A stretch of DNA of 64,000 nucleotides from Arenicellales bacterium (GCA_963663315.1 OY760176.1:69822-133821); one strand, 5' to 3'. Positions 1,688 to 32,004 are shown, numbered from the stretch's first letter. The notes: generated from the letters alone by a model not told the origin. Translations and numbers: made by a program.

Positions 1688-2689
1688 CTAAATCTGCAAT
1701 ACCACCTTGGGTGCGGCACAATGTCCCTTGAGGATTTCGTCAAATGCGCTTCCCCCATCGCCGAGCGGGCGGGATTCGATCCAGTCCAGCGTTCCGAGCG
1801 CCCCACTGTGCAACTTTTGTAGTGTGACGCGCAAATCCAGCGGAGAGTAGGTATAACATCCTATCAGTGTAATTTCCTGCAGGGTCATGCGCCTCACATC
1901 AACGCTGCCCTCGTTGTCCATCAGTCCGATATGTACAATGATTGATCCCGGGCGTGCGCAGGCTACGCTGATATTCCGTGTTTTTGCATTTCCCACGGCA
2001 TCGAAGACCAGATCATAGTGATTTTCCCGGGGAGAGGTTTCAATCGGGTCAAATACATTGCAATCGGTTTGGTCAATGACCGTTTGCCGTCTCAATGGAT
2101 TGGTTTCGGCCAGATCGACCTGTGCCACCCCCTTGTCCAGCAGAATCAATGCAGTCAGCAGGCCAACCGAACCGGCGCCGATTACCAGTGCACTGGCTTC
2201 ACTGACCGGGCGTGCGCTGGATTTTTCGGCAAGCAAGATCGCATGTAACGCGGTAGCGCCTGGTTCGGTTAATGCTGCCTTGGCGGTATCCATGCTGTCT
2301 GGCGCTTCAATCAGATTACGTTCCGGGATGGCAATCTGTTCGGCGAAGGCTCCTGCCCGAACCATGCCGATCAAATCCCTGTGTGCACAGAGATTCTGAC
2401 GGCCGCCTGAACAGTCATCGCATTTTCCACAGGTAATGAGGGGATTGAGCACCACTCTTTTACCCGGTTTGCTGCCTTGCAATACCACTCCAACGGCTTC
2501 ATGTCCGAGAATCAGTGGCGGCGCCCTGCGTGGATCGTGACCCAGCCAGGCATGCATGTCAGATCCGCAAATACCGACGGATTGAACGGCAACCAATGCT
2601 TCATCGTGACCGGGGTTCGGGTCCGGTTCGTCACGGTAGGTCATTTGTTGATTGGCTGTATATACCAGGGCTTTCATTTCAGGATCCAA
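1688..2689 (-). CDS. Zinc-dependent alcohol dehydrogenase (MDR family); candidate HpsP-like dehydrogenase
   Basis: 333 aa. Catalytic-zinc region CGSDMH and GHEAVGVV, structural-zinc CGKCDDC...C, Rossmann GAGSVG. Lies 3 bp downstream of the SDR gene. Confidence 0.85.
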   Translation of the reverse strand: MDPEMKALVYTANQQMTYRDEPDPNPGHDEALVAVQSVGICGSDMHAWLGHDPRRAPPLILGHEAVGVVLQGSKPGKRVVLNPLITCGKCDDCSGGRQNLCAHRDLIGMVRAGAFAEQIAIPERNLIEAPDSMDTAKAALTEPGATALHAILLAEKSSARPVSEASALVIGAGSVGLLTALILLDKGVAQVDLAETNPLRRQTVIDQTDCNVFDPIETSPRENHYDLVFDAVGNAKTRNISVACARPGSIIVHIGLMDNEGSVDVRRMTLQEITLIGCYTYSPLDLRVTLQKLHSGALGTLDWIESRPLGDGGSAFDEILKGHCAAPKVVLQI

Positions 2690-2692
2690 GTA

Positions 2693-3484
2693 TTATCGTG
2701 CAGTGAAACCGCCATCGATGTAAAGTGTCTGCCCGGTGATATAGGCGGAAGCGGCAGATGCGAAGAAAATGGCAATGCCGGACAGATCGCTCAATTTCCC
2801 GTTTCGTCCCAACATGGTTTGGCTGGCAGCCCAATGTTCGTTTTCGGGATTGTCGAATATGGGGGCGGTCAGCTCGGTTGGGAAAAACCCCGGTGCAATC
2901 GCGTTACAGGTGATACCCTGAGGAGACCACGCTTGCGCCATCGCCCTGGTCAGTTGGCAGATTCCGCCTTTTGAGGCGCCATAGGCCATGCTATTGGCAA
3001 ATGCGCGAAATGATTGTAACGATGCAATGTTGATAATGCGTCCAAATCTGTTTTCAACCATACCCGGAATAAATTCCCGGCTGAAAAAAAATGGTACGCA
3101 AAGATTCAGATTGAGAGTTGCGTCCCAACCTTCGATTGTGACCTCATCCACACTCTGACGAAGGTTGATTCCGGCTGCATTGACAACGCCATCGACATGC
3201 CCGAATGCGTCCTTGCACTGTGCAGCGACATCGCCAATTCCCGGTCGGTCGGCAAGATCGGCACATACTGACCTTGCCCGTCCTCCGCTTTCAGTAATTT
3301 GCTCAATAACGTGATCAAGTTTATCCTGGCGTCGGGCAATGCCGACGACGGCGGCTCCCGCTCCGGCCAGAAACCGGGTTATCTCACGACCAATGCCTGA
3401 ACTGGCGCCGGTGATCACAAATACCCGGCCACTCAGGGAGAACTGGTCGAGTGGGTTATCCTGGATCGGTGACGGGTCTGGCAT
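2693..3484 (-). CDS. Short-chain dehydrogenase/reductase (SDR); candidate HpsO-like
   Basis: 263 aa. TGASSGIG cofactor motif, NAAG, and catalytic YGASKGG (YxxxK). Confidence 0.88.
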   Translation of the reverse strand: MPDPSPIQDNPLDQFSLSGRVFVITGASSGIGREITRFLAGAGAAVVGIARRQDKLDHVIEQITESGGRARSVCADLADRPGIGDVAAQCKDAFGHVDGVVNAAGINLRQSVDEVTIEGWDATLNLNLCVPFFFSREFIPGMVENRFGRIINIASLQSFRAFANSMAYGASKGGICQLTRAMAQAWSPQGITCNAIAPGFFPTELTAPIFDNPENEHWAASQTMLGRNGKLSDLSGIAIFFASAASAYITGQTLYIDGGFTAR

Positions 3485-3501
3485 GTCCGGGCAGACTTGT
3501 C

Positions 3502-4818
3502 CTAAAGCGTCCGCTGATCAATCCCCAGATCGAATTCTTCGCCCGGAAAATACTTGTAGAGACGGTCATCTCCACTGCGGGCATGACCTTCCATGCCTTC
3601 TGCACGGGAAATTCTTGCAGTCACCGCGCCGACATCCCGATTGGCCTGTTGATTCATGCGCTGGTAGGTCAGCACTTTTATAAACTTGGCTACACTTAAC
3701 CCCCCGGTATAACGCGCTGCGCCCTTGGTTGGCAGAATATGATTGGTCCCTGAACACTTGTCGCCATAGGAAACCGTCGTTTCTTCACCGAGAAACAGCG
3801 AGCCGTAGTTGTTCAGATTTTCAAGCCACCAGTCGAGGTCCTGACAGTGAACTTCAAGATGTTCACTGGCATACCGGTCGCTGACCTGAACGGCTTCTTC
3901 CCGGGAGTCGACCACCACGACCTCACCATAGTCACGCCAGGCGCTTTGTGCAGTCGAACGATTGGGTTCGGCCAGTCTCTCGATATATTCAGGCATCAAC
4001 TCAATGACTTTATCTGCCTGCGATGCTGAAGTACTGATCAGCCACGCAGGAGAATCAGGACCATGTTCTGCCTGGCTTGTCAGATCACAGGCGATAATTT
4101 CAGGGTCGGCCGTCTCATCAGCGATGATCAATACTTCGGTGGGGCCAGCGAACATGTCGATACCCACTCGCCCGAACAGGATTCGTTTGGCTTCTGCTAC
4201 AAATCGATTTCCCGGACCCACGAGTATGTCAGCGGCATTGCCGGTGAACAGTCCGAAGGCAAGGGCGGCCACTCCCTGAACGCCGCCGAGATGGAGTATG
4301 GTATCTGCTCCGGCATAATTCGCCGCATACAGAATCGCAGGATGAACACCCCGCTCACCGTGGGTCGGAGAGCAGGCAATGATATTGCTGACGCCAGCGA
4401 CTCTGGCTGTGGTGACGCTCATGATTGCAGAGGCGATGTGTGCGTAGCGTCCGCCCGGTATGTAACAACCCGCAGTCTGCACCGGAACCAGGCGTTGTCC
4501 ACAAAAGAAGCCGGGAGATAATTCGGTTTCAAACTCCCTCATACTTGCTAACTGCGCTTCTGCGAATGTCTTCACACGTGCATGGGAGAACCGGATATCC
4601 TGCTTGATCTGTTCAGGCAGTGAAGTGGTCGCCTGCTCGATTTCCTGTTGGCTGACGACTACTTCCTTCTCCCAGCCATCCAGTTTCTGCGCATACTCCA
4701 GTGCTTTTCCCTGGCCGCCCTTTTCGATTTCCCGGAGCATGGTGCGAACGGTTTCATGGGTGTCGTCCTGTCCGGTGGCCGAGGTTTTCGGCGCTTTCCT
4801 GATATAGTGAACCGCCAT
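3502..4818 (-). CDS. Histidinol-dehydrogenase-family NAD-dependent dehydrogenase; HpsN-like (sulfopropanediol 3-dehydrogenase) candidate, not biosynthetic HisD
   Basis: 438 aa with HisD-family blocks (SQAEHGPDS, GDKCSGTNHILPT, GGVQGVAALAFG). It sits in a TRAP/SDR/ADH catabolic operon rather than a his operon. The HpsN assignment rests on my recollection of that subfamily. Confidence 0.7.
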   Translation of the reverse strand: MAVHYIRKAPKTSATGQDDTHETVRTMLREIEKGGQGKALEYAQKLDGWEKEVVVSQQEIEQATTSLPEQIKQDIRFSHARVKTFAEAQLASMREFETELSPGFFCGQRLVPVQTAGCYIPGGRYAHIASAIMSVTTARVAGVSNIIACSPTHGERGVHPAILYAANYAGADTILHLGGVQGVAALAFGLFTGNAADILVGPGNRFVAEAKRILFGRVGIDMFAGPTEVLIIADETADPEIIACDLTSQAEHGPDSPAWLISTSASQADKVIELMPEYIERLAEPNRSTAQSAWRDYGEVVVVDSREEAVQVSDRYASEHLEVHCQDLDWWLENLNNYGSLFLGEETTVSYGDKCSGTNHILPTKGAARYTGGLSVAKFIKVLTYQRMNQQANRDVGAVTARISRAEGMEGHARSGDDRLYKYFPGEEFDLGIDQRTL

Positions 4819-6963: not shown

Positions 6964-8073
6964 TTATTGTGCCATCTGCAATTGTTTGGCGTACGCCTGC
7001 CCGAGGGCCGCGTTTGACGTTTGTGCACCCGCCCAGAAAGGAACAGCGATGTCAGCAAATGCTTTTTGGGAATCCCAGACTTCGGCAAAGAACGCATTCT
7101 CGGCAGCATTTTTCTCAAGACTTGCCCTCGCCGCATTCATGTACGCCGGAAAATAATCTGCAGGTGTATCATGAAGAATGACGCCGTGATTTTCCGTCAG
7201 GTCTTTCAGCGCCTTGCCGTTTTCAAAGATCCGATAGCTAATGGACCTGATCAACGACGCATCGGCAGCAATATTGATCGCGTTTCGCTGGTATTCGGTC
7301 AAGCTGTTCCAGACATCGCCGTTGAAATAGATGTCAGCGTTGACCACGACCTGGTGAAGCCCTTGCAAGTAGTAGTGTTTCAGTACTTTGTGGAAGCCGA
7401 ATACACTATCCGGTTTTGGACAACACCATTCTGCGGCGTCAATGATGCCTTTTTCCAGGGCAGGAAGAATGTCACCCCCGGCCATCGCCACGCTCGCGAC
7501 GCCAATGTCTTTATAGGTCTGGCCGGGAATACCCGGAGGGGTACGGAAACGGTATTTTCGGAAATCTTCCATACTGTTGATCGGTTCCTTGAACCAGCCC
7601 AGCGCTTCAGGGCCAACAGGCTGGAGCATGACGCCATGGATATTCATACCCATTTCATCCCACAAGCGGTCATACAACTCGCGCCCTCCTGCATTCATGA
7701 ACCACGAGAGGAAGGCGATGTTATCGATACCCACGCCAGCGCCTGCAACCGGGGAACCGAACAGCATGGCGGCAGGGTGTTTGCCGGACCAGTAATGCGT
7801 CCAGGCGAATCCGGCTTCAACCAGACCTTTGTCTACCGCATCGAGAATATTTGAAACACTTACGATCGCCCCAGCAGGCAGCATCTCAAGTTGCACTTCG
7901 CCGTTGGTCAAGGAAGCGACATTTGCGGCAAAATCCTTCAGCATGACAGTTTCATCCGCTTTGGTTGTCACCGCAGTCTGGACCCGGATTTTTACCTCCG
8001 CGATTGCGCTGGCGCCGATAAGCATGGACAGTCCGATCAGCGTGGCTGCCACTCGTTTAAAAGTTTGTATCAT
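6964..8073 (-). CDS. dctP: TRAP transporter substrate-binding protein (DctP family)
   Basis: 369 aa. N-terminal signal peptide (LIGLSMLIGASAIA). First gene of the dctP-Q-M arrangement. Confidence 0.85.
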   Translation of the reverse strand: MIQTFKRVAATLIGLSMLIGASAIAEVKIRVQTAVTTKADETVMLKDFAANVASLTNGEVQLEMLPAGAIVSVSNILDAVDKGLVEAGFAWTHYWSGKHPAAMLFGSPVAGAGVGIDNIAFLSWFMNAGGRELYDRLWDEMGMNIHGVMLQPVGPEALGWFKEPINSMEDFRKYRFRTPPGIPGQTYKDIGVASVAMAGGDILPALEKGIIDAAEWCCPKPDSVFGFHKVLKHYYLQGLHQVVVNADIYFNGDVWNSLTEYQRNAINIAADASLIRSISYRIFENGKALKDLTENHGVILHDTPADYFPAYMNAARASLEKNAAENAFFAEVWDSQKAFADIAVPFWAGAQTSNAALGQAYAKQLQMAQ

Positions 8074-8251
8074 TGTGTATCCTCTTTACTAATTGATGTT
8101 TAATTTGATCACTTCAGGTTGGTTTCCCGAAAAAATCTCAGGAGAATATTAAAAAAGAACCCGCCCAATCAAAGAACAGATTCTTTCAAAAATGCAATTA
8201 ACCATTAAACTCTGGCTATAGCGGGCCGTATCTTGACATATTAAGCCAGTG

Positions 8252-8911
8252 TTAGCAATGGATTTCCCCGGATCTGATTCTGATTACATTTACATCGTCC
8301 ATTATTTTCATGGCTGTTGCTAATGAGCCTTCCATATTAATTGCGCGACAGGCATCTTCAATCAGGAACACATCGAAACCTTCTGATCTGGCATCAAGGG
8401 CTGACCAGGCAACACAAAAATCCGTCGCCAGGCCAACCATGAAAATTCGCTCGAACCCCCGGCTTCGAAGATAACCGGTTAGTCCGGTTGGTGTTGATTT
8501 GTCATTTTCAAAAAATGCAGAATAAGAATCTATTTCTGTCCGAAATCCCTTGCGGATAATCAATTCTGTATTTTTAACATCAAGCCGGGAATGAAATGCC
8601 GCTCCTGGAGAACCCTGGGTACAATGATCCGGCCATAGAACCTGATCTCCATAGGGCATACTGATCTGATCAAACGGGGAATGTCCGGGGTGGCTTGACG
8701 CAAACGAGCTGTGGTTTTCGGGGTGCCAGTCCTGGGTCAGCATCCGGTGCTGAAATTTTTCCGAAATCGTATTGATAATCGGAACAACTGCATCACCATC
8801 AGGGACTTCCAGCGCTCCCCCGGCACAAAAATCGTTTTGCACATCAATAATTAACAGACAATCTGTATTGTTTTGTATCATTTTGATTTCCGGTATTCTG
8901 AACTGTGCCAT
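8252..8911 (-). CDS. pncA: Nicotinamidase/pyrazinamidase (isochorismatase fold)
   Basis: LLIIDVQNDFCAGGAL N-terminal block, HP...H metal site, and catalytic Cys in ATDFCV. The start may be the internal MIQNN. Confidence 0.85.
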   Translation of the reverse strand: MAQFRIPEIKMIQNNTDCLLIIDVQNDFCAGGALEVPDGDAVVPIINTISEKFQHRMLTQDWHPENHSSFASSHPGHSPFDQISMPYGDQVLWPDHCTQGSPGAAFHSRLDVKNTELIIRKGFRTEIDSYSAFFENDKSTPTGLTGYLRSRGFERIFMVGLATDFCVAWSALDARSEGFDVFLIEDACRAINMEGSLATAMKIMDDVNVIRIRSGEIHC

Positions 8912-19411: not shown

Positions 19412-19660
19412 TTGGAGCCGTTTGAGCGGTTCGCGGAATCGAACGCCACTATCGACGAATACGCCGCCATCATCGCGGAAGCCGATGAAGACGGTATTCT
19501 CCGGGCTCGAGTTCTCTTACCCAATAACGAAGCAATCACGTTGACCGTCGAGCCGTCCCGGCTCCTGTTTGGCGTCGACCGTGAGGCCTACAAACTGGCG
19601 TTGAACACATGTCGGGGTGCGGCAGCCTCAAAACTTTCGGTTGATGAGGAGGCTGCCTGA
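19412..19660 (+). pseudogene. 5'-truncated ORF remnant upstream of hsdR
   Basis: The frame is open from the first base after the IS end and has no ATG (the track uses TTG). Its stop overlaps the hsdR ATG (TGATG). Probably the tail of a type I R-M operon gene cut by the IS. Confidence 0.5.
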
Positions 19661-22600
19661 TGGCGTTCATCTCAGAAGCCGGTGTCGAGGCCGCACTACT
19701 CGATCAGCTCGAAGGCCTCGGTTATACCCGTCTTCCGGACGGCATCGCGGGACCCGACGGCTCCGCGCCCGAGCGCGCGTCCTATTCCGACGTGGTGCTG
19801 GTGGACCGCCTGAAACGGGCCGTGGATCGTCTCAACCCGGATATCCCGTCCGAGGCACGCCAAGATGCGTTGAAGAAGGTCATTGCCGACGAGACCCCGT
19901 CTCTGATCGAAGAGAACCGGCGTATTCACCGTGCCCTGGTCGAAGGCATCGATGTGGAGTTCTACGTCGAGGACGGCACCATACGCGGCGACAAGGTCCG
20001 TCTGATCGATTTCGGCGATCCGTCGGCGAACGACTGGCTGGCAGTGGACCAGTTCACGGTCATCCAACACGGCAACAACCGCCGTCCGGACGTGGTGGTG
20101 TTCGTCAACGGCCTGCCGCTGGGAGTGATCGAAATCAAGAACCCCGGCACCGAGAGTGCCACGCTAACCGGCGCCTACAACCAGTTGCAGACCTACAAGT
20201 CACAGATTCCGTCCCTGTTTCGAACCAATGCCGCGTTGGTGACTTCTGACGGCCTGATGGCGCGGATCGGCTCTCTGACAGCTAATGAAGAACGGTTCAT
20301 GCCATGGCGAACGACGGATGGCACCGATGTCGCGGCCAAGGGCAGTCCCGAGATGTCCGTGCTGATCGAGGGCGTGTTCGAACAGCGGCGGTTCCTCGAT
20401 CTAATCCGCGATTTCACGGTCTTCGGCGATACCGGATCGGGTATTTCCAAGATCATCGCGGGCTATCATCAGTATCACGCCGTGCGACACGCCGTGGAAA
20501 GCACGGTGGGTGCTACCTCGCCCGAAGGCAACCGCAAGGTGGGCGTGATCTGGCACACCCAGGGTTCCGGCAAGAGCCTTCTCATGGCGTTCTACGCGGG
20601 CCAACTGGTTCGACGACCGGAACTGCAAAACCCGACCATCGTTGTCATGACCGACCGCAACGACCTGGACGATCAGTTGTTCGGCACCTTCTCCATGTAC
20701 CGCGACCTGATCCGTCAAACGCCAATCCAGGCGGAAAACCGTGAGGATCTGCAAAAGGCGCTGAACCGGGCTTCGGGCGGGGTCATATTCACCACCATCC
20801 AGAAGTTTGCTCCCGCCAGGAGCGGGGCGGACTATCCTGCGCTGACGGACCGGCGCAACGTGGTGGTCATCGCCGATGAAGCGCACCGCAGCCAATATGG
20901 CTTCAAGGCAAGGGTTGAACAGAAGACCGGCGAGATCGCCTATGGCTTCGCCAAGTACCTGCGCGATGCGCTGCCCAACGCCTCTTTTATCGGGTTTACC
21001 GGAACGCCGATTGAGAAGGACGACGCCAACACGCCCGCCGTGTTCGGCCAGTACATCGACGTTTACGACATCAGCCGGGCGGTCGAGGACGGCGCAACGG
21101 TGCCGATTTATTACGAAAGCCGGTTGGCGCGCATCGAACTGCCCGATGAGGAAAAACCCAGAATCGACGCCGAGATCGAGGAATTGACCGAGGACGAGGC
21201 GATAACGGAGCAGGAGCGTCTGAAGCGTAAATGGTCGACCGTCGAAGCACTCGTCGGCGCGGAGAAGCGCCTCAAGATGGTGGCGGAAGATCTGGTGCGG
21301 CATTTCGAGGACCGAGTCGAGGCGATGGAAGGCAAGGCCATGGTGGTCTGCATGAGCCGCCGCATTTGCGTCGCTTTGTACAAAGAGATCATCGCCCTTC
21401 GCCCCGATTGGCATTCCGACGACGATAAGGGCGGCGCGATCAAAATCGTCATGACCGGCTCGGCAGCCGATCCTGAAGCCTGGCAGCCCTATGTGGGCAA
21501 CAAGACCCGCCGGGACCTGCTTGCCAAACGGGCGAAGGACCCGAGCGACCCGCTCATGCTGGTTATCGTCTGCGACATGTGGTTGACCGGCTTCGATGCC
21601 CCCTCCATGCACACCATGTACATCGACAAGCCCATGCGGGGTCATGGGCTGATGCAGGCCATCGCGCGGGTCAATAGGGTGTTCCAGGACAAGCCTGCCG
21701 GATTGGTGGTCGACTACATCGGCGTCGCTCAGAACCTGAAGAATGCGCTGGGCCAGTATTCGGCGGCGGACCAGAAGAACGCGGGGATCGACGAGGCCGA
21801 TGCCGTCGCAATGATGCTCGAAAAGTACGACGTGGTGCGCACCATGTACCACGGCTTCGATTACATGCGGGGCCTGGCCGGCACGCCTCAAGAGCGGCTT
21901 ATCGCCATGGCGGAGGCGATTGAGTGGATTCTTGAACGCCAGCACAAGGCCGCCGAGAGGGAAACGACGGAGGAGGCCAGGAAGAAGGCTCATCGTCGCT
22001 ACCAGGACGAAGTGCTCGCCTTGTCCAAGGCCTTTGCCTTTGCCGCCGCCAGTGACGACGCCCGCCAGATCCGCGACGAAGTCGGATTCTTCCAGACGGT
22101 CCGTGCCGCACTGGTCAAGTCGGCCCAAGGAACCGGCAAATCAGTCGCCGATCAGCAATTGGCGGTTCAACAGATCATCGACCGCGCCGTCGTCTCGACG
22201 GAGATCGTAGATATTTTGGCGGCAGCCGGCTTGGGAACGCCTGACATTTCAATCCTGTCGGAGGAGTTTCTGGCCGAAGTCCAGCAGATGGAGAAAAAGA
22301 ACCTTGCACTGGAAGCCTTGAAAAAGCTGCTCAATGACGAGATCACCTCCCGCAGCCGCTCGAACGTGGTGGAGACCAAACGGTTCTCAGACCGCCTGGA
22401 GCAGGCCGTGGCCCGTTACCACACCAATGCCATCAGCACGGTCGAGGTCCTCCAGGAACTGATCAATCTTGCCCGGGAAATTAGGGAAGCCCGGAAGCGC
22501 GGTGAAGACGAGGGCTTGTCCACGGACGAGGTGGCTTTCTACGACGCCCTGGCGGAGAACGAAAGTGCCATTGAGGTGATGGGTAATGACTCCCTCAAGC

Positions 22601-22803
22601 TCATCGCCCATGAACTGCTGAGTAGCCTCAAGTCCAACATCACGGTTGATTGGTCACACAGGGAGAGCGCTCGGGCGCGAATGCGGGTTCTGGTCAAACG
22701 TATCCTGCGCCACCATGGATATCCGCCAGACCTGCAAGATGCTGCCGTGCAGACGGTTCTGCAACAGGCCGAAGCCTTGTCCGCGCAATGGGCTACATCA
22801 TAA
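19660..22803 (+). CDS. hsdR: Type I restriction endonuclease subunit R
   Basis: 1047 aa. Typical N-terminus [24 protein letters not shown]2 helicase motifs ([22 protein letters not shown]) and a long helical C-terminal domain. No hsdM or hsdS in the window. Confidence 0.93.
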
Positions 22804-23004: not shown

Positions 23005-23375
23005 GAGCTATGGCCAAATGTTGGTGACGCGTTGATCAGGCAGTGTCGTGGATGTGCTTGATGCCGTCCTTGTACGTCACTCCCTGGATGACTTCGACGA
23101 GATAGTCCGATCCATCGAGCGGACAGTGCCCCCGACGGCGCGAAACACCATTGGAGGATGGTAGTGGTGGGCCAGAACCGATTGCACGGGAGATGTGAGA
23201 GTGGACCGGAGCCCAGAGTTTCCCGCAGGACTGTGGGGAGGGGGGCACTTCGAATTCTTGACACTCCACGGCGAAGAGAGTAAGGTGCAACTGCAAGGGG
23301 ACAATCTCTACTCTTCTTGCCACAACGGTGTTCGGGGCACGACTCCCCGAGCGGACCGCATGGTCCAGCACGCAT
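23005..23375 (-). pseudogene. Decayed IS256-family element end with a frameshifted transposase C-terminus
   Basis: The terminal sequence GAGCTATGGCCAAATGTTGG... aligns at about 28 of 39 positions with the left end of the intact IS256-family element at 28820. The stop codon sits at the same offset (23036). PLDGSDYLVEVIQGVTYKDG matches KLDGSNHLAEIIRGVKFVDG. Upstream homology is scattered over three frames. Confidence 0.55.
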
Positions 23376-23614
23376 CGACCGAGTGAAAGCGTGTCTACGG
23401 GTTCCGGTCGCCGAAAGAATCGTCCGAGAGGGCGATCCCTGGAGAGGCTGCCTTCACCCGTCTTCGCGACATATACCGGTGTACTTTCAAGAAAGCCGCG
23501 GCCGCTCCAGCGCGTTTGTGCGAACTACGCCGGGTGCGTCGCTGCGTAACGGCTGCGATCCCGGCACGAGACGGGTTTGCGGCTCATAACAATGTTAGGG
23601 AGGATGTGTCTTCG

Positions 23615-24739
23615 ATGAAAAAAATCAGGGTGGCCATCGCTGGTGTCGGCAACTGCGCGAGTTCCTTGGTACAAGGGTTGGAATACTACCGGGGCCGCAA
23701 CGAGGCGTCATTCAGCGGTCTAATGAACGCAAAGATCGGCGATTGGGGGCCCAGCGATATCGAGATCGTGGCCGCCTTTGATGTCGACCGCCGTAAGGTC
23801 GGCAAGCGGGTGGAAAAAGCGATTTTCGCCAGACCCAACTGCACCAAAATATTCCAGAGCGCTCTGCCCGTATCCGAGGTCGTGGTGCGGATGGGACCGG
23901 TTCTCGATGGCGTCGCGCCTCACATGGCCGACTACCCGGATGACGAGGCTTTCCGCCCCTCTGACGAAGAACCGGTCGACGTCGTCCAAGTCCTCAAGGA
24001 CGCTCGGGCCGAAGTTCTGGTCTGCTACATGCCGGTTGGCTCGGAACAGGCGGTTCGGCACTATGCCAGGGCTTGCCTGGAGGCCAGCGTGGCCATGGTC
24101 AACTGCGTTCCGGTGTTTATGGCTTCCGACCCCGAATGGGCTGGGAAATTTCGCGATGCCGGCCTGCCCATCGTCGGCGACGACATCAAAAGCCAGGTCG
24201 GCGCCACCATCGTGCACCGGACCCTCGCTCGCCTGTTCGGAGACCGCGGCGTACCGCTTGATCGAACCTACCAGTTGAACACGGGCGGCAACACGGATTT
24301 TCTCAACATGAAGGCGCTCGACCGCTTGAAGTCCAAGAAAGTTTCCAAGACGGAATCCGTGCAGTCCCAGTTGGACGAACGGCTGGATTCCCGGAACATT
24401 CATATCGGGCCGTCCGATTACGTGCCGTGGCAGGACGACAACAAGGTTGCCTTCATCCGTATGGAAGGCCGCGGTTTCGGGGATGTGCCGTTGGAGTTGG
24501 AGCTCAGGCTGTCGGTCCAGGATTCACCCAACAGCGCGGGCGTGGTCATCGATGCGATTCGGTGCGCCAAGCTGGGGTTGGAGCGCGGCATCGGCGGTCC
24601 TTTGGAGGCGGCCTCCGCCTACTACATGAAGAGCCCGCCCAATCAGATGCGCGATTCGCTGGCCTATGAATTGACGGGTTCGTTTATCCAAGACAGAAAG
24701 GCCGGCGAGGGGACATCTCAAGCGGTCGCCGATGAATAG
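23615..24739 (+). CDS. ino1: myo-Inositol-1-phosphate synthase (short prokaryotic type)
   Basis: 374 aa counted from the ATG at 23615, which has GGGAGGA 10 nt upstream. MKKIRVAIAGVGNCASSLVQG Rossmann start, GDDIKSQVGAT, NTGGNTDF and SKKVSKTES blocks. Confidence 0.85.
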   Translation: MKKIRVAIAGVGNCASSLVQGLEYYRGRNEASFSGLMNAKIGDWGPSDIEIVAAFDVDRRKVGKRVEKAIFARPNCTKIFQSALPVSEVVVRMGPVLDGVAPHMADYPDDEAFRPSDEEPVDVVQVLKDARAEVLVCYMPVGSEQAVRHYARACLEASVAMVNCVPVFMASDPEWAGKFRDAGLPIVGDDIKSQVGATIVHRTLARLFGDRGVPLDRTYQLNTGGNTDFLNMKALDRLKSKKVSKTESVQSQLDERLDSRNIHIGPSDYVPWQDDNKVAFIRMEGRGFGDVPLELELRLSVQDSPNSAGVVIDAIRCAKLGLERGIGGPLEAASAYYMKSPPNQMRDSLAYELTGSFIQDRKAGEGTSQAVADE

Positions 24740-25604
24740 TCTCGCCGGTCAGGCCGCCAACAACGGTCCGGGCGGTGGCAACACAATCCGGACCGTGGAC
24801 TCGCCCTGGGTGGAACGGCTGCTCACGCTCCACCGCCAAGTGCGGAGCGCGGTCGCGAAAGCCGGCCTCGAAGCAATCGGGTCCAAGAACCCGAAGGGTG
24901 ACGACGTTAAACGGTTCGACCTTGCCGCCAATGACGCGGCATTGGCCGTTCTAAGGCGACTCCAAGTGCCGGTTGTCGTCGATTCCGAGGAGAGCGGGCG
25001 CCAGGAAATCGGCTCCGGCACACCGCGGCATCGCCTCGTCCTCGATCCGGTGGACGGGTCCGACAACTGGGCGCGGGGAATGCCGTTATCGGCCTTGTCC
25101 TGTGCCGTGCTGCCAATCGACGCCCCTCTCCAGCCCGATTGGGTCGAGGCGGCCCTGGTCGGGCCGCTCGAACAGGAAACGCCCCTGATCGCGTTCAAGG
25201 GCTCCGGGGCCTGGCGCGGGAACGAGCGTCTCGCAACATCGCAGCTTGGCACCATTGCCAGGGCCACGATTTCGGTCGAACTCAACCATCATTCTCCGTC
25301 GCCGGGGCTTGTCCACCTAATCGCGGCCGCCAGGGGAGTGCGGTGCTATGGCTGCGCTTCGCGCGCCATCTCCCTGGTCGCCGAGGGCGCGACCGACGCC
25401 CATGTGGACGTGCGTGGCCGTCTGACGGTGGAAAGCTACCTCGCCGCTGCGCGGTTGGTGATCGAGGCGGGAGGCTGGATTGTTGGCCTCGATGGCGCGC
25501 CCCTGGCGGCGCCGGAAGGCTTGACCGACCGCGTCGGCCTGATTGCGGCGGCGAGCCGGGAGCTCTGTGAGGAAATCGTGGAACTCCTGGGCGATGCAGG
25601 ATAG
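24732..25604 (+). CDS. Inositol-monophosphatase-family phosphatase
   Basis: 290 aa. Metal-binding DSEESG and LDPVDGSDNW motifs. C-terminal AAARLVIEAGG. Overlaps ino1 by 8 nt. Confidence 0.8.
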   Translation: MNSLAGQAANNGPGGGNTIRTVDSPWVERLLTLHRQVRSAVAKAGLEAIGSKNPKGDDVKRFDLAANDAALAVLRRLQVPVVVDSEESGRQEIGSGTPRHRLVLDPVDGSDNWARGMPLSALSCAVLPIDAPLQPDWVEAALVGPLEQETPLIAFKGSGAWRGNERLATSQLGTIARATISVELNHHSPSPGLVHLIAAARGVRCYGCASRAISLVAEGATDAHVDVRGRLTVESYLAAARLVIEAGGWIVGLDGAPLAAPEGLTDRVGLIAAASRELCEEIVELLGDAG

Positions 25605-25741
25605 TGGCTTGGCAAACCCGGCGCCGGAGGGGGCGCTGATTATGGCAGCCGGGCTGGGATCGCGGTTTCGACCGGGAACCAAGACACCGAAGCCCCTGAC
25701 CAGGGTGCTCGGACTGAGCCTCGCCGAACGGGTCGTCTGCA
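25594..25741 (+). pseudogene. 5' fragment of a second nucleotidyltransferase (IPCT-domain) gene
   Basis: ATG at 25594 overlaps the IMPase stop. Encodes ...ALIMAAGLGSRFRPGTKTPKPLTRVLGLSLAERVVC, paralogous to residues 15-52 of the 26819 protein. Homology stops abruptly at 25741. Confidence 0.7.
25683..25741 (+). repeat. 59-bp direct repeat, copy 1 (57/59 identical to 26911..26969)
   Basis: GACACCGAAGCCCCTGA(C)CA(G)GGTGCTCGGACTGAGCCTCGCCGAACGGGTCGTCTGCA, read directly from the sequence. Confidence 0.9.
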
Positions 25742-25847
25742 TGTTCGGGCCGCCAACGACAAGCTCGGCCGTGGCTCGTGTCGTTTCCCCGGCAACGAAG
25801 TGTCTGAGAATTTACACCAACCGACCTCGGTCTGGGCTCAATATCAT

Positions 25848-26759
25848 ATGTACGATGTCTGCATAATTGGCCACGTCACAAGGGATATTGGCGCATTTAA
25901 CCGACGGCCCGGGAGCGAGATGCCGGGCGGAGTTGTCAACTACGCGGGGATCGCGCTTCAGAGCCTAGGCCTCAAGACCGCGGTCATCACCAAAGCGGCA
26001 AATGTCGATGCCGACGAGATCCTGGGACAGCTGCGGAAAATTGGCGTCAAGGTCCATTGGCTTGCTAGCCGGTCGACCACGGTCTTTGAGAATAATTACT
26101 CGGGAAACGGACTCGAATTCAGGAATCAGAAAGTCCGGTCGATCGCTAATACTTTCGACCCCCGCTGTCTGCCACCGGTTTGGGCCAAGACGTTTTATCT
26201 CGGTCCGCTCACGAATGGCGAAATGTCCGCCGAATTTGTGAAAGCGGTGTCCGAGCGGGACGGTCGCGTGTTTTTGGACGTTCAAGGCTTTCTCAGAGAG
26301 GTCGAGAACGGAAAGGTCCGCTTGGTCGACTGGCCCGAGAAGCGGGAGGTGCTCGCTCATGTCCACGTCTTGAAGGCGAACCTCGCCGAGGCCCGATTCC
26401 TGTCGGGAGAGAAAGAACCCGAGCGCGCGGCGCGAAAGCTTGTCGAACTCGGGCCGGAGGAGGTCATCTTGACGTTCGGCGGCAACGGTTCTCTTATCCT
26501 TGCAGGGGGGCGCCTCTACGACATTCCAGCCTATCCGCCGCGGGTTGTCGCCGACCCTACCGGCTGCGGCGACACCTACAGCGCCGGTTACATCTTTCAC
26601 CGGCTGCAATCGGATGACATCGGAGCCGCCGGCCGGTTCGCGGCTGCCCTGGCGGCGCTCAAACTGGAACGTCATGGACCGTTCACGGGCGACGCGCAAG
26701 AGGTCCAAGCTCGCCTGAGAGAAGCCGAGGCCATGGCGGAGTCGGACCGCCAAGAATGA
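25848..26759 (+). CDS. PfkB/ribokinase-family carbohydrate kinase (candidate inositol kinase)
   Basis: N-terminal GG region MPGGVVNYAG and C-terminal DPTGCGDTYSAGYI (DTxGAGD-type). I prefer the ATG at 25848. The track uses GTG at 25800. Confidence 0.8.
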   Translation: MYDVCIIGHVTRDIGAFNRRPGSEMPGGVVNYAGIALQSLGLKTAVITKAANVDADEILGQLRKIGVKVHWLASRSTTVFENNYSGNGLEFRNQKVRSIANTFDPRCLPPVWAKTFYLGPLTNGEMSAEFVKAVSERDGRVFLDVQGFLREVENGKVRLVDWPEKREVLAHVHVLKANLAEARFLSGEKEPERAARKLVELGPEEVILTFGGNGSLILAGGRLYDIPAYPPRVVADPTGCGDTYSAGYIFHRLQSDDIGAAGRFAAALAALKLERHGPFTGDAQEVQARLREAEAMAESDRQE

Positions 26760-26818
26760 TGCCAAATCTGACGGCCCGGCCAACCGCGCGTCGTGCGATA
26801 AAATCATCGGAAGTCTGA

Positions 26819-28183
26819 GTGATGGTGGGAACTAACGACCAGATAGCGACCCCGGAGGTTGCGGTGATGCTTGCTGCTGGACTTGGGTCACGCCTATTTC
26901 CGCAAACCACGACACCGAAGCCCCTGATCAAGGTGCTCGGACTGAGCCTCGCCGAACGGGTCGTCTGCACGTTGCTGGACGCAGGCGTCCGGCGGGTCCT
27001 CGTCACTCTGGGTCATGAGGCCGAATCAGTGAAGGAGCATTTTTCCGGCATCGCCCGGCGTCGCGGCGTCACGATCGACTTCATCGAAGCCGAGGGCTGG
27101 GAGCAGGGCAACGGCGCCAGCGCCCTGGCGGCCAAGGGTCGCACCGGCGAGGCGCCCTTCTTCCTGGTCATGATCGATCATCTGTTCAATCCCGCAATCG
27201 CACGGGCCCTGGCCAACGACCCGCCGGCAGTGGGCGAACTTCGCCTCGCCGTGGACCGCGACAAAGGCGCCATCTTCGATCTCGACGATGTCACCCGGGT
27301 CAAGATCGACGACGGACGCATTAAGGAAATCGAGAAGAACCTCGACGATTGGGATGCCGGCGACACCGGGGTCATGCTTTGCACGACCGGCCTGTTCGAA
27401 GGTCTCGAGCGCGCGGCGGCAAGCAACAAGCACGGGCTTTCCGACGGGCTCAGGGAACTGGCGCGCGAGGGGCGGGCGAGAACCGTCGACGTGACTGGAA
27501 TGCGGTGGCTCGACGTGGACACGCCCGACGCCTTGCGTGAAGCCGAACGACGTCTGATGCGCGACCAGGGCCGCAAGACCCGGGACGGGCCGGTGTCGCG
27601 CCATCTCAACCGCCCGGTTTCCCGATGGCTCAGCCGCTATCTGGTACGCACGGCGGTAACGCCCAACCAAGTCTCCCTGGCCTCGTGGATACTGTCCTGC
27701 AGTGCTGCGGGGTTGATGGCATTGGGCGGCTATCCCGCCCTGGCCGCCGGTGGCGTGCTGGCGCAACTGGCCTCGATCATCGACGGTTGCGATGGCGAGA
27801 TCGCCCGGCTGAAGCATTCCCAGAGCGAGTTCGGCGGCTGGTTCGACGCGGTCCTCGATCGGTATGCCGACGCCGCCCTGTTGTTCGGCCTGATGTGGCA
27901 CGAATTCGCTGCGACCGGCACAACCCTGTCCGTCGTGCTGGGGTTCGCGGCAATTGTCGGGTCGTTCCTAAACAGCTATACGGCGGACAAGTACGACGGG
28001 CTGATGGCTCAAAGGTTGCGAGGCGTCTCATACGTCCGGCTGGGCCGTGACGTTCGGGTGTTCGTCATCTTCCTTGGCGCCATCCTGAACCAGCCATTAT
28101 TCACCCTGGGTGTCGTTGCATTGGTGATGAATTTGGAAGTAGTTCGAAGGATCGTGATGTACAGGCGCGCTGCAGCGTCATAG
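26819..28183 (+). CDS. Bifunctional nucleotidyltransferase / CDP-alcohol phosphatidyltransferase (IPCT/DIPPS-like)
   Basis: 454 aa. N-terminal AAGLGSRL...KPL sugar-phosphate nucleotidyltransferase motif. The C-terminal membrane domain has an exact DG-x2-AR-x8-G-x3-D-x3-D signature (DGEIAR LKHSQSEF G GWF D AVL D). Confidence 0.85.
   Translation: MMVGTNDQIATPEVAVMLAAGLGSRLFPQTTTPKPLIKVLGLSLAERVVCTLLDAGVRRVLVTLGHEAESVKEHFSGIARRRGVTIDFIEAEGWEQGNGASALAAKGRTGEAPFFLVMIDHLFNPAIARALANDPPAVGELRLAVDRDKGAIFDLDDVTRVKIDDGRIKEIEKNLDDWDAGDTGVMLCTTGLFEGLERAAASNKHGLSDGLRELAREGRARTVDVTGMRWLDVDTPDALREAERRLMRDQGRKTRDGPVSRHLNRPVSRWLSRYLVRTAVTPNQVSLASWILSCSAAGLMALGGYPALAAGGVLAQLASIIDGCDGEIARLKHSQSEFGGWFDAVLDRYADAALLFGLMWHEFAATGTTLSVVLGFAAIVGSFLNSYTADKYDGLMAQRLRGVSYVRLGRDVRVFVIFLGAILNQPLFTLGVVALVMNLEVVRRIVMYRRAAAS
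26911..26969 (+). repeat. 59-bp direct repeat, copy 2
   Basis: Lies within the 5' part of the IPCT/DIPPS-like gene. Has two mismatches to copy 1. Confidence 0.9.
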
Positions 28184-28819
28184 CGGGCGAATGGGCTAAC
28201 TGAGAACGGCAGAGCAATAATCCCCCACTGAAGCGGCCGGTCGATCCGGCTGCGGCGGACCAAAATGGGACCGCGTATAGCCTTCTGTCAGGGTTGCTCT
28301 GACTGGAAGGCGGGGGGGATGTATCGGGTGGAGTTGTACGCACGGGTTCGGCGGGCGTGTCATGTCGAGGGGATGAGCACCCGCGAGGCCTCGCGGGTGT
28401 TTGGTGTAGACCGCAAGACAGTCCGTAAGATGCTGTCGTTCTCGGTGCCGCCAGGGTATCGCCGAAGCGCGCCGCCGAGGCGGCCAAAGCTGGGTCCGTT
28501 CACGGGAATCATCGATCGGATCTTGGAAGACGATCGGACCAGCCACCGCAAGCAACGGCACACTGCGAAGCGCATCTTCGACCGCCTCCGGGACGAGTAC
28601 GGTTTCACGGGCGGCTACACCATCGTGAAGGACTACGTTCGTGAGCAGGGGCTTCGGTCGCGTGAGGTGTTCGTGCCACTCTCCCATTCCCCCGGTCACG
28701 CCCAGGCGGACTTCGGCGAAGCGATGGCGGTGATCGGCGGCGCGTTACGGAAGATCCACTTCCTTGCCTTCGACCTTCCCCACAGTGATGGTTGCTTTGT
28801 TGCGGCCTATCCGGCGGAG

Positions 28820-30194
28820 GAGCTATTGTCAAAAGTTGTGTATGGGCTGATCATGCGGCGGCGCGATCCTGGCGTTCTCCATCTACGAATTTGACGCCGC
28901 GAATGATCTCGGCGAGATGGTTCGATCCATCGAGTTTTCTCCATTTTCTCTGAGCGCACTGGCATAGTTTGAAGACCATGGCCATCGCCGTCTTGCGCGA
29001 CAGGCAGCCCTTGGTCCGGTAGGTGCGCAGACGAACCGTGGCGAACGTGCTCTCGATGGGGTTGGTCGTGCGTACATGCTTCCAGTGCTCGGCGGGGAAG
29101 TCGTAGAACGTCAGCAGGACGTCGCGGTCCTTGGCCAGGCAGGCCGCGGCCTTGTCGTACTTCGGCCCGTAGGCTTCCAGGAAGAAGTCGAAGGCGCTCT
29201 CGGCATCCTTCCTGGTTTCGGCCATCCAGATGTCTTGCAGGCGCCCCTTGGCTTTCTTTTGCAGACCCTTGGGCAGCTTGTTCAAGACGTTGCCCGTCTT
29301 GTGAACCCAGCAGCGTTGCTCGCGGGCGCCTGGGTAGACTTGGCGGAGCGCCTTCCAGAAGCCGAGCGCGCCGTCGCCGAGCGCCAGTTGCGGACCCATT
29401 TCAAGGCCGCGCCGCTTGAGATCGAGCAGAACTTCGAGCCAGGACTGCTCACTTTCGCGATAGCCGTCGGCGATGGCGATCAGTTCCTTCTGTCCCTTGT
29501 CCGTGGCCCCGACGATCACCAGGATGCACTGCTTCTCTTCCTCCATGCGGGCGCTGAAATAGATGCCGTCCACCCAGAAATAGACGTAGCGCTTGGCCGT
29601 GAGGTCGCGCCGTTGCCAGCGCTCCGCCTCAACCCCCCAGACCTCTTTCAGCCGGGTGATCGTGGAGGCCGAAAGCCCCGGCGCGGAGCTCCCCAGGAGC
29701 GCCGCCAAGGCTTCCCCGAAGTCGCCGGTGGAAATGCCCTTCAGATACAGCCATGGCAAAAGGTCTTCCAGGCTCTTGGCGCGGCGCAGATAGCGCGGCA
29801 GGATCGCCGACGTGAAGCGGATGGCGCCGTCCCCCCGGTCCCGCACACGGGGTTGGCGCACGCTCACCGGGCCGATCCCGGTCTGGATGAAGCGTTCCGG
29901 CAGATATCCATTGCGGACAACCCGGCGGCGGCCGGCGGCGTCAACAAGCGCCGCATGGCTACCCAAAAACACGGAGACCTCGGCCTCAACGGCTTGGGCC
30001 AACAACTCGCGAGCTCCAGCTTGTAGGACTTCCGTCAACGTATCTTTCTGAAAATCAGATGGGTTTTGAAAAGCAACAACGGTATTCTCTTTCATGGCGT
30101 ATCCTTCCTTGGCTTAGCTCAAGTGGTGACATCAACAATCACCAGGATACGCCGCCTTCATTTCAACGCCGTACACAAGATTCGGTTATAGCTC
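28820..30194 (-). mobile_element. IS256-family insertion sequence with a 9-bp target-site duplication
   Basis: 1375 bp. Imperfect terminal IRs GAGCTAT.... Flanked by CCGGCGGAG at 28811-28819 and at 30195-30203. Confidence 0.9.
28851..30095 (-). CDS. IS256-family (mutator-type) transposase
   Basis: 414 aa. YVYFWVDGIY, GDGALGF and QRCWVHKTGNVLNK blocks typical of IS256 transposases. Confidence 0.9.
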   Translation of the reverse strand: MKENTVVAFQNPSDFQKDTLTEVLQAGARELLAQAVEAEVSVFLGSHAALVDAAGRRRVVRNGYLPERFIQTGIGPVSVRQPRVRDRGDGAIRFTSAILPRYLRRAKSLEDLLPWLYLKGISTGDFGEALAALLGSSAPGLSASTITRLKEVWGVEAERWQRRDLTAKRYVYFWVDGIYFSARMEEEKQCILVIVGATDKGQKELIAIADGYRESEQSWLEVLLDLKRRGLEMGPQLALGDGALGFWKALRQVYPGAREQRCWVHKTGNVLNKLPKGLQKKAKGRLQDIWMAETRKDAESAFDFFLEAYGPKYDKAAACLAKDRDVLLTFYDFPAEHWKHVRTTNPIESTFATVRLRTYRTKGCLSRKTAMAMVFKLCQCAQRKWRKLDGSNHLAEIIRGVKFVDGERQDRAAA

Positions 30195-31198
30195 CCGGCG
30201 GAGACGACCGAAGCATTCTGCGATGGCCACAACGCGGCGTTTGCCTTCTTCGGCGGCGTCCCCCGATCCATCCTGTACGACAACACCAAGCTGGCGGTTG
30301 CCCGGATCCTGGGCGATGGGAAGCGGCAGCGAACGCGCGTCTTCACGGAGCTTCAGTCCCACTATCTGTTCGAGGACAGGTTCGGCCGGCCGGGCAAGGG
30401 CAACGACAAGGGCAAGGTCGAGGGACTGGTCGGCTTCATCCGGCGGAACTTCCTGGTCCCCGTCCCGCGTGCCGAGAGCTTCGCGGCCCTCAACGATGCT
30501 CTCGCCGAACAGTGCCGCCGGCGCCAGGCGGCGCGGCTGCGGGGCCACAAGGAGACCATCGGCGAGCGTCTCGAGCGGGATCGTCAAGTTCTCTTGCCAT
30601 TGCCGCCTGCTCCCTATGATGCCTGCGATAAGCGCCCTGGACGGGCGAGTTCGCTGTCGCTGGTGCGTTACCGCAGCAACGACTATTCCGTGCCCGTGGC
30701 CTACGGCCACCGTGAGGTGCTCATCCGGGGCTACGTCGATGAGGTGGTGATCAGCTGCGGGGCCGAGGTGATCGCCCGGCACCGCCGGTCCTACGACAGC
30801 GAGGACCTGATCTTCGACCCGCTGCATTACCTGCCCTTGATCGAGCAGAAGATCGGCGCCCTCGACCAGGCCGCGCCATTGGCGGGCTGGGACCTGCCCG
30901 AGGCCTTCATCACTCTGCGGCGGCTCCTCGAAGCTCGTATGGGCAAGGCAGGCAAGCGCGAGTACGTCCAGGTGCTCCGTCTACTGGAGACCTTCCGGCT
31001 CGAGGAGGTCGAGGGTGCGGTCGGCGACGCCCTGCGGCTCGGCGCAATCGGCTTTGATGCGGTGAAGCACCTGGTACTGTGCCGCATCGAGCGGCGGCCG
31101 CCCAGGCTCAACCTCGACGTCTATCCGTATCTGCCGCGCGCCCGGGTCGCGATGACGTCCGCCAAGTCGTACATGAGCCTGCTGTCGGGGCTCGGCGC

Positions 31199-31963
31199 AT
31201 GACCGACACACCGCAAGTGCTGCTCGCCCACCACCTCAAGACGCTGAAGCTGCCGACCTTCCTGCGCGAGTACGACAAGATCGCCCGGCAGTGCGCCTCG
31301 GAAGGCGTCGATCACGTCCGCTACCTGTTGAGACTCGCCGAGCTCGAGCTGATCGACCGCGAGCGCCGCATGGTCGAGCGGCGCATCAAGGCGGCGCGCT
31401 TCCCCGTGGTCAAGAGCCTCGACAGCTTCGACTTCAAGGTCATCCCCTCGCTCAACAAGGCGCTGGTCCTGGAGCTGGCCCGCTGCGAGTACATCGAGCG
31501 CCGCGAGAACCTCATCGCGCTCGGCAACAGTGGGACCGGCAAGACCCACATCGCCCTCGGTCTCGGCCTGGCGGCCTGCCAGAAGGGCCTCTCGGTCGGC
31601 TTCATCACCGCCGCCGCGCTGGTCCACGAACTCATCGAGGCCCGCGATGACAAGCAGCTGCTGAGGTTCCAGAAGAAGCTCGCCACCTACAAGCTTCTGA
31701 TCGTCGACGAACTCGGCTTCGTGCCGCTGTCGAAGACCGGCGCCGAGCTGTTGTTCGAGGTGTTCAGCCAACGCTACGAGCGGGGCTCGACCCTGGTCAC
31801 CACCAATCTGCCCTTCGACGAATGGACCGAGGTGTTCGGCTCCGAGCGCCTCACCGGCGCGCTCCTCGATCGCCTCACCCACCACGTCAACATCCTCGAG
31901 ATGAACGGTGACAGCTACAGGCTCAACCAGAGCCGCAGGCGTCAAACCCCGACTGCTAACTGA
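31199..31963 (+). CDS. istB: IS21-family helper ATPase IstB
   Basis: 254 aa from the ATG that overlaps the istA stop. Walker A GNSGTGKTH and Walker B LLIVDELG. Confidence 0.92.
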   Translation: MTDTPQVLLAHHLKTLKLPTFLREYDKIARQCASEGVDHVRYLLRLAELELIDRERRMVERRIKAARFPVVKSLDSFDFKVIPSLNKALVLELARCEYIERRENLIALGNSGTGKTHIALGLGLAACQKGLSVGFITAAALVHELIEARDDKQLLRFQKKLATYKLLIVDELGFVPLSKTGAELLFEVFSQRYERGSTLVTTNLPFDEWTEVFGSERLTGALLDRLTHHVNILEMNGDSYRLNQSRRRQTPTAN

Positions 31964-32004
31964 ACTGAATCGCCCCGGGAATTCCGGAGACTCGGTTGTT
32001 TGAG

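Follow-up and report, generated by a model that had tools for sequence, protein, structure and literature searches.

A PfkB kinase gene flanked by a gene stub and a 59-bp direct repeat: a probable recombination scar in a di-myo-inositol phosphate operon

How did a PfkB-family kinase gene come to stand inside an operon for di-myo-inositol phosphate (DIP) synthesis, preceded by a truncated copy of the start of the very gene that follows it? The question is raised by a 64,000-nt stretch of DNA from an Arenicellales bacterium (GCA_963663315.1, OY760176.1:69822-133821; hereafter the window, in which all positions are counted), where an initial annotation, made from the sequence alone, had noticed a relic IPCT/DIPPS 5' end and a near-perfect 59-bp direct repeat around the kinase gene. 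We compared the locus with its relatives in genomes and metagenomes. The stub is homologous to the start of IPCT/DIPPS and evolves nearly neutrally, the working IPCT/DIPPS gene is a mosaic of two cluster types, and the junction to the left of the kinase segment is common to three lineages. The analysis makes it likely that a kinase segment from one type of cluster was joined into a DIP operon of the other, leaving the stub and the repeat as the scar of that recombination.

Origin of the stub and of the working gene

According to an open reading frame (ORF) listing of 24500-28500 and to Pfam and NCBIfam searches, the cluster consists of four co-directional genes, namely myo-inositol-1-phosphate synthase (MIPS), an IMPase-family phosphatase, the PfkB kinase and a fused IPCT/DIPPS. 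The operon is one for the biosynthesis of DIP, a protective solute. A scan over one genome per species gave 80 loci encoding IPCT/DIPPS relatives (designated L with a number). We call A-type the gene order MIPS-IMPase-IPCT/DIPPS, found in about 35 relatives, and B-type the order MIPS-kinase-IPCT/DIPPS, without IMPase. Relatives of the kinase were collected by a metagenome scan with the kinase protein, a protein search and genomic-context look-ups, which revealed the B-type clusters L082 and L165; the short contig L166 begins with sequence matching the 3' end of MIPS, and L167 carries kinase and IPCT only. The features of the window are as follows.

23233..28203, + strand: cluster of about 5 kb recurring at more than 99% identity in other contexts
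23612..24739, + strand: MIPS, first A-type gene; likely start ATG 23612, the mechanical ORF running from TTG 23516
24732..25604, + strand: IMPase-family phosphatase, presumed DIPP phosphatase (PF00459 and NF009321)
25594..25745, + strand: probable relic of the resident A-type IPCT/DIPPS gene, a 5' stub of about 50 codons
25683..25741, + strand: upstream (relic) copy of the 59-bp tract, 57/59 identical to 26911-26969
25741..25745, no strand: left junction (putatively illegitimate), end of the IPCT homology
25746..25847, + strand: spacer 5' of the kinase gene
25848..26759, + strand: PfkB-family kinase (PF00294), probably a myo-inositol kinase, of apparent B-type origin
26760..26821, + strand: kinase-IPCT intergenic spacer of apparent B-type origin, in continuous alignment with L082, L165 and L166
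26819..28183, + strand: functional IPCT/DIPPS, mosaic with an A-type body (PF12804, PF00483 and PF01066)
26819..26897, + strand: B-type 5' end of the functional IPCT/DIPPS; GTG 26819, likely start ATG 26822
26897..26931, no strand: interval of the B-to-A switch (putative homologous crossover), from diagnostic sites
26911..26969, + strand: downstream (functional) copy of the 59-bp tract, encoding TPKPLIKVLGLSLAERVVC

Comparison with the kinase-free clusters supports an ancestral state in which IPCT/DIPPS probably overlapped IMPase. The IPCT/DIPPS start lies within the IMPase 3' end in 29/29 testable kinase-free relatives, with a 14-nt overlap in 20 of them, and these 29 clusters carry the uninterrupted allele, an IMPase gene overlapping an intact IPCT/DIPPS. 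The stub starts at the same position, at ATG 25594, 11 nt inside the IMPase ORF. From there its frame remains open for 90 codons to TAA 25864-25866, thereby overlapping the kinase ATG at 25848. Only the first approximately 50 of these codons align with the IPCT N-terminus, giving weak NTP-transferase matches (PF12804, E=0.0012); the alignment covers IPCT codons 1-50 and the rest of the gene is absent. The 5' 92 nt of the stub show 75-83% nucleotide identity with the 5' ends of A-type IPCT/DIPPS genes.

dN/dS is 0.60-0.83 in the stub, whereas IMPase shows 0.16-0.26 and the kinase 0.32-0.37. Although the copy in the window retains all family motifs, those of relatives are damaged: GLGSR has become GRGSR in L081 and L163, and VLGLSLAER is replaced by VFGSTPAER in L081 and by VFGLTPAER in L163. 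In L169-171 an in-frame deletion of 105 nt (35 codons) has occurred at a GACT microhomology; no other indels were found in the stub across the compared lineages. Given dN/dS of 0.6-0.8 and the broken motifs, the stub is not a gene, and the comparisons support its being a pseudogene fragment of the resident A-type IPCT/DIPPS, apparently in nearly neutral evolution. For annotation, this means that the 90-codon ORF at 25594 should not be counted as a gene. It is highly improbable that it codes for a real small protein in the form of a mini NTP-transferase-like peptide, as might be thought from the open frame, the weak PF12804 match and the intact motifs of the window copy; besides its dN/dS and the motifs destroyed in L081/L163, it spans only about 36/160 positions of the domain model, and L169-171 have lost 35 codons including the motifs. 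Several proposals of the initial annotation are thus borne out. The ORF listing places ATG 25594 over the end of IMPase (24732-25604), the kinase-free relatives agree with an original IMPase-IPCT/DIPPS overlap, and the A-type homology, relaxed dN/dS, motif loss and 105-nt deletion agree with a relic IPCT 5' end. The 49-codon fragment that it described corresponds to the roughly 50 codons homologous to the IPCT start, the ORF itself being of 90 codons.

The repeat was then compared between its two copies and with the family at large. An exact alignment of 25683-25741 with 26911-26969 gave the 57/59 identities that had been proposed, with mismatches at 25700 and 25703 and an exact run of 38 nt (25704-25741). 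The ungapped match extends over 127 nt (25619-25745 versus 26847-26973; 80% identical), the copies being identical at 52/92 nt upstream of the tract. Past GTCGTCTGCA, three of the next four bases match and similarity then disappears, so that the abrupt end noted earlier falls at 25741-25745. The tract is locally conserved, since many unrelated genes reach 50-55/59 against either window copy. However, family-wide conservation alone was excluded as the cause of the 57/59 identity: none of 778 independent family gene pairs (<88% body identity) reaches this value, pairs at 84-88% body identity show a mean of 50.4 and a maximum of 56 of the 59 positions, and the tract is no outlier in synonymous conservation, its third-position diversity ranking 55th of 87 windows along the gene. 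Because the observed identity is beyond the family background, the two copies must share recent ancestry or have exchanged sequence. An assembly artefact was also excluded, the arrangement being present in at least eight other assemblies (L081, L161-L164, L169-L171); L172 has it too, with an insertion sequence (IS) in the kinase gene.

Comparison with A-type genes shows where the anomaly lies. The first 92 nt of the functional gene are 54-67% identical to every A-type gene, while its body is 82-88% identical to them; since the stub is A-like and this functional 5' end is not, the deviating part lies at the start of the working gene and not in the stub. The first 100 nt of the functional gene are about 73-81% identical to B-type sequences (L082, L165, L166), the best A-type reaching 69%. 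Beyond this stretch, the identity of the gene is 84-90% with A-types and 73-84% with B-types; over offsets 151-800, counted like all offsets along the functional gene, the closest A-types (L007, L025, L002) reach 89%, compared with 81-82% for L082/L165 and 73% for L166. Thirty-three diagnostic sites discriminate A from B. Up to offset 78, seven of them are B and one is A, whereas from 84 to 593 all 18 are A (Fisher p=1e-5); offset 78 itself is B, followed by A at offsets 84 and 89. At offsets 109 and 112, where the two copies of the repeat differ, the states are those found in L165, and the GC content at third codon positions (GC3) of the functional 5' end is 0.58 against 0.70-0.85 for its neighbors. 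On the basis of these identities and sites, the working gene is a chimera of the two cluster lineages and should be annotated as such, with a switch within 26897-26931, at the 5' edge of the tract or inside it. The data support a B-type origin, like that of the kinase, for approximately its first 80-110 nt and an A-type origin for the rest.

The same partition is seen on the kinase side. For the kinase and the spacers on either side of it, B-type clusters are the only ones that align, and they do so continuously from 25805/25830 through the kinase gene and the intergenic spacer into the IPCT 5' end. Every close kinase homolog adjoins IPCT/DIPPS, and relatives more than 60% identical all sit in DIP clusters. 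B-type character extends over the kinase, its two spacers and the start of IPCT, and A-type character over MIPS, IMPase, the stub and the IPCT body; the nucleotide identity of MIPS is 85-88% with A-type relatives, 77.5% with the B-type and 92.9% with L170. These results uphold the earlier proposal that the kinase and a diverged IPCT 5' end entered by recombination at the tract, where the A/B switch is bracketed.

The following course of events would account for the arrangement. A resident A-type MIPS-IMPase-IPCT/DIPPS cluster, with the IPCT/DIPPS start codon in the last codons of IMPase, would have been joined by a B-type fragment consisting of about 100 nt of upstream spacer, the PfkB kinase gene, the intergenic spacer and the first approximately 80-110 nt of IPCT/DIPPS. 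The right end would result from homologous crossing-over at the locally conserved tract or just within it, and the left end from an illegitimate join directly after the tract of the resident gene (25741-25745). The first 152 nt of the resident gene would thereby have been duplicated, the upstream copy (25594-25745) becoming a dead stub, and the downstream copy a working gene in which a B-type 5' end is fused to the resident A-type body. Candidate mechanisms are one-ended homology with an illegitimate join, integration of a circularized fragment, or template switching during replication. Homology-facilitated illegitimate recombination is a known process, as is insertion-duplication via a single crossover or template switching. 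The window resembles it in having one end in shared sequence, the other without homology, and a direct duplication of the target; unlike the known cases, the event is ancient and since modified, and its mechanism is read from sequence alone. As a recombination scar accompanied by a gene stub the feature is ordinary in kind, though unusually well documented, and it leaves the current understanding of recombination and of DIP synthesis unchanged. It provides a clean and datable case of operon remodeling, in which an accessory gene was built into a biosynthetic operon with a short conserved stretch as the homologous anchor and an illegitimate other end, leaving a gene stub behind.

Age of the junction and later history

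The same left junction and arrangement occur in L081/L163/L164 (about 90.5% identical overall) and in L169-171, whose cluster lies in a GroEL/malic-enzyme neighborhood. The three kinase-bearing lineages are each other's closest relatives in the kinase and in the body of IPCT, at 93-94% identity or about 6-7% divergence; MIPS, available for a single pair (the window and L170), is 92.9% identical. In addition, the relics share a derived T at offset 75, a site that is otherwise invariant. The shared junction, the co-divergence and the derived T indicate a single event before the lineages split, and the insertion is thus old, predating the three lineages, through whose 6-7% divergence the arrangement has persisted. 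Independent single-crossover integrations of a circular cassette were considered and rejected, since the kinase, the IPCT body and MIPS have diverged in step and the relic site is shared. The initial annotation also suggested that the direct repeats might make the kinase segment prone to deletion; a search for such a deletion allele in genomes, metagenomes and proteins found no close A-type allele (>90% identity in MIPS or in the IPCT body) without the kinase.

The age of the event bears on how the repeat is to be read. In L163 the tract copies are 48/59 identical; with an event that predates three lineages, the 57/59 of the window is not a pristine footprint. Consequently, the insertion scar of the initial annotation stands as regards entry by recombination but not as regards a fresh repeat, which is at 48/59 in L163 and belongs to a mostly deleted stub in L169-171. 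At three informative tract sites (3/3), the copies within a genome agree and the other lineage differs, and the relic tract has acquired no private change in the window but eight in L163 (binomial p=0.008). The window identity has probably been kept or restored by gene conversion, by recombination with intact A-type alleles, or by both. Homogenization of the tract copies is in our inference the process behind this pattern, and the homology of external A-type alleles would end at the junction. As in the concerted evolution of a pseudogene with its paralog, the copies agree within a genome at 3/3 sites and the window relic lacks private changes; unlike in that process, the tract is very short (38-nt exact run) and the evidence thin. 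Recombination with external intact alleles would be an equally good source of the pattern.

Among the three lineages, synonymous divergence in the IMPase gene, most of all in its 3' half, is about 2.6-fold that of the kinase and IPCT, probably through localized recombination; MIPS, for which nucleotide identity only is considered, is also much less diverged than IMPase. This anomaly means that at least one further recombination touched the region; the divergent island formed by the IMPase 3' half and the stub ends at the junction and is a further sign of later homogenization. A wholesale swap of the left half, which the discordance of IMPase had suggested, was withdrawn given that MIPS of the window and of L170 are sisters at 92.9%. 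It is conceivable, if rather unlikely, that the stub and the tract serve as a portable left homology arm for exchange of the kinase cassette through homologous recombination with ordinary MIPS-IMPase-IPCT clusters, which are in the course of spreading through deep-sea bacteria belonging to many phyla, or for its excision from them, the stub frame acting as a translational bridge between IMPase and the kinase. Were this the case, repeated exchange ending at the junction would explain the island, the 'fresh' stub of the window and the concerted changes in the tract.

Alternatives and counter-evidence

Some observations weigh against a B-type segment having been joined into the A-type operon, or against parts of this reading. 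No source was identified for the approximately 60 nt at 25746-25804, and the left junction is therefore not reconstructable: a sensitive blastn search retrieved only L081 and L001, and no homolog of these 60 nt is detectable. The donor is unsampled, its closest B-type kinases being merely 76-78% identical at the protein level. The crossover is bracketed only to offsets 78-113, as polymorphism among the A-type genes deprives the tract of any fully diagnostic site. Toward the 3' end, at offsets 1201-1256, three diagnostic sites have the B state. The case for gene conversion consists of three sites and one rate asymmetry, and when changes are counted against the A-type consensus the asymmetry becomes 3 versus 8 and is not significant. 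Finally, the IMPase 3' half and the stub form a divergent island (dS 0.35 vs 0.13, p=2e-4; about 86% nucleotide identity), and the IMPase 3' half and the relic are not sisters among the three kinase-bearing lineages. Two further candidates were dropped: a B-type 3' end of the functional gene, suggested by the three sites above, is not supported by windowed identity, and the search for a relic in 25746-25850 gave only chance 12-13-mers, including an 'AAND' match to IMPase.

Two other histories would produce a kinase between a stub and a complete gene. A whole B-type module, the kinase with the entire IPCT/DIPPS, could have replaced the resident gene from nt 152, the 57/59 identity being then due to conservation or to later conversion. 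L001 does hold kinase and IPCT as a separate IS-flanked unit, the two genes are equally diverged between lineages (dS 0.134 and 0.135), and the three 3'-end sites are B. Yet the L001 unit is merely the product of truncation by an IS at 25802, the divergence of MIPS parallels that of the kinase and the body, which implies that the whole cluster was inherited together, and neither the 18/18 A states at offsets 84-593 nor the greater identity of the body to the closest A-types (89%, against 73-82% to B-types, at offsets 151-800) fits such a module; we regard this history as improbable. Duplication of the IPCT 5' end in place, followed by fast divergence of the first 90 nt of the downstream copy and involving no second IPCT lineage, seems to us still less credible. 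The low GC3 of the downstream 5' end (0.58 vs 0.70-0.85) and the confinement of the divergence to about the first 30 codons would suit it, and selection for a less structured, AT-richer translation start after the loss of coupling to IMPase, for instance, could have driven it. It fails to account for the derived states that this 5' end shares with L082, L165 and L166, where it stands behind homologous kinases, or for the B-type character of the kinase and of both spacers.

A different issue is whether the stub frame has been kept as a translational bridge, with a restart at ATG 25594 and a stop at TAA 25864-25866 over the kinase start coupling IMPase to kinase translation. The frame is open in the window, L081/L163 and L169-171 lineages, the 105-nt deletion of L169-171 is in frame in a stub without other indels, a canonical Shine-Dalgarno sequence is absent upstream of the kinase ATG, and the + strand between the genes showed no site resembling a promoter or terminator. 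Neutral simulation nevertheless leaves the frame open 44% of the time, adding the 1-in-3 chance of an in-frame deletion brings the joint chance to about 0.1, and B-type clusters carry the same kinase behind a similar upstream region without any ORF reading into it. Such a role is hence doubtful. The spacer at 25746-25847 gave no Rfam hit and its RNA fold is not unusual, and across the region Rfam, RNA folding and promoter/terminator scans found no RNA element or signal.

Enzymes, relatives and mobility of the cluster

DIP gene clusters with MIPS, a bifunctional IPCT/DIPPS and an IMPase-type DIPP phosphatase are known from hyperthermophiles, and IPCT/DIPPS or DIP clusters have reportedly been found in deep-sea Thaumarchaeota and are said to occur in Atribacteria of methane-hydrate sediments. 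The window cluster shares with them the three enzymes and the fusion of an NTP-transferase with a CDP-alcohol phosphatidyltransferase, and differs by its additional kinase gene and gene stub. Its MIPS matches PF01658 (E=1e-34) and TIGR03450 (E=2e-142). In the functional IPCT/DIPPS, the N-terminal domain matches PF12804 and PF00483 at residues 15-134, with a GxGxR motif within LAAGLGSR, and the C-terminal domain matches PF01066 at residues 281-407, with a DG..AR(x8)G(x3)D(x3)D motif readable as DGEIARLKHSQSEFGGWFDAVLD. The Thermococcales model NF041135 aligns over its full length (protein 15-450, model positions 3-418 of 419) with a score of 272 bits, under the 580-bit cutoff; the protein is a relative of this equivalog and not a member, and a predicted enzyme, and in this respect it differs from the IPCT/DIPPS of Thermococcales. 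An exact protein look-up with its sequence gave no match, and the plasmid database yielded nothing beyond distant MIPS homologs.

The kinase has the PfkB fold (PF00294) with the conserved catalytic GD and the inositol-binding residues. The solved structures that it matches best over the full length are TM0415 (E=1e-26) and the myo-inositol 3-kinase of T. kodakarensis (3w4s/4xf7; 3e-8), respectively a pyrophosphate (PPi)-dependent 1-kinase and an ATP-dependent 3-kinase. In TM0415, inositol is bound by D11, N78, Q141 and R145, D234 is catalytic, and R229 and R232 bind PPi (PMC5931981). The inositol-binding and catalytic residues are conserved in the window kinase, in which D13, N82, Q146, R150 and D242 align with D11, N78, Q141, R145 and D234. 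In contrast, P and C stand in place of R229 and R232, and the phosphate donor is therefore probably a nucleotide. TM0415 furthermore belongs to a catabolic cluster, unlike the window kinase, which stands in a biosynthetic one. Structural relatives and position next to IPCT/DIPPS together make a myo-inositol kinase the most likely assignment. The enzyme probably feeds salvaged inositol phosphate to IPCT, a salvage route into the CDP-inositol/DIP pathway. An inositol kinase beside IPCT/DIPPS suggests that deep-sea bacteria may make CDP-inositol and DIP from scavenged inositol besides glucose-6-phosphate.

The cluster as a unit recurs in unrelated surroundings. Positions 2386-7351 of L161 match 23233-28198 at 99.4% between unrelated flanks (ABC transporter/cyclase), and positions 4987-7385 of L001 match 25802-28203 at 99.7% with IS elements on both sides; the window copy itself lies in an HsdR/IS21 context. 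The right boundary is common to the window, L161 and L001, about 15-20 nt past the IPCT stop. No terminal repeats of the recurring 5-kb cluster were seen. Upstream, a 1047-amino-acid ORF (19660-22803) resembles the R subunit of a type I restriction enzyme, as judged from its translation only. Directly after the cluster, 28204-31968 is occupied by an IS21-like element (istA from 28265) that is split by an IS256-like element at 28820-30194. L162 is the same locus at 99.45% identity but lacks the IS256-like element, and the alignments overlap there by 9 nt, which points to a target duplication. L172, a 5.59-Mb contig with the same locus, bears an IS3-family element in the kinase gene (7211-8615; window 25909-25941) and another IS at the left boundary of the cluster (3328-4510; window 23238-23251), so that IS elements have repeatedly hit the cluster within the L172/window population. 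L165, which is B-type, comes from the same sample as L161 (ERZ28669063); adjoining its cluster, at 2111-3498, is an IS256-family element 88% identical to window 28812-30199.

The GC content of the cluster is 60-67% against a window average of 55%. In L002-L040, IPCT/DIPPS proteins are 80-87% identical in metagenome-assembled genomes labelled Alphaproteobacteria, Nitrosomonadaceae, Thermodesulfobacteriota, Binatia, Planctomycetota and others, and this similarity across many phyla points to extensive horizontal spread of the cluster. L168 (3620-6200) is degenerate, with MIPS, an IMPase 5' stub of about 135 nt, a kinase and an IPCT 5' stub of about 200 nt followed by unrelated genes; a functional IPCT/DIPPS is absent nearby. 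In the independent cluster L008, MIPS and IMPase are separated by a different PfkB kinase (38% identical), on whose sides lie a 130-nt stub of the MIPS 5' end (2444-2570 versus 4101-4230; 85-88% identical to the true start of MIPS) and an IMPase 5' stub (3577-3717). Kinase insertions that leave gene stubs have thus occurred more than once in this cluster family.

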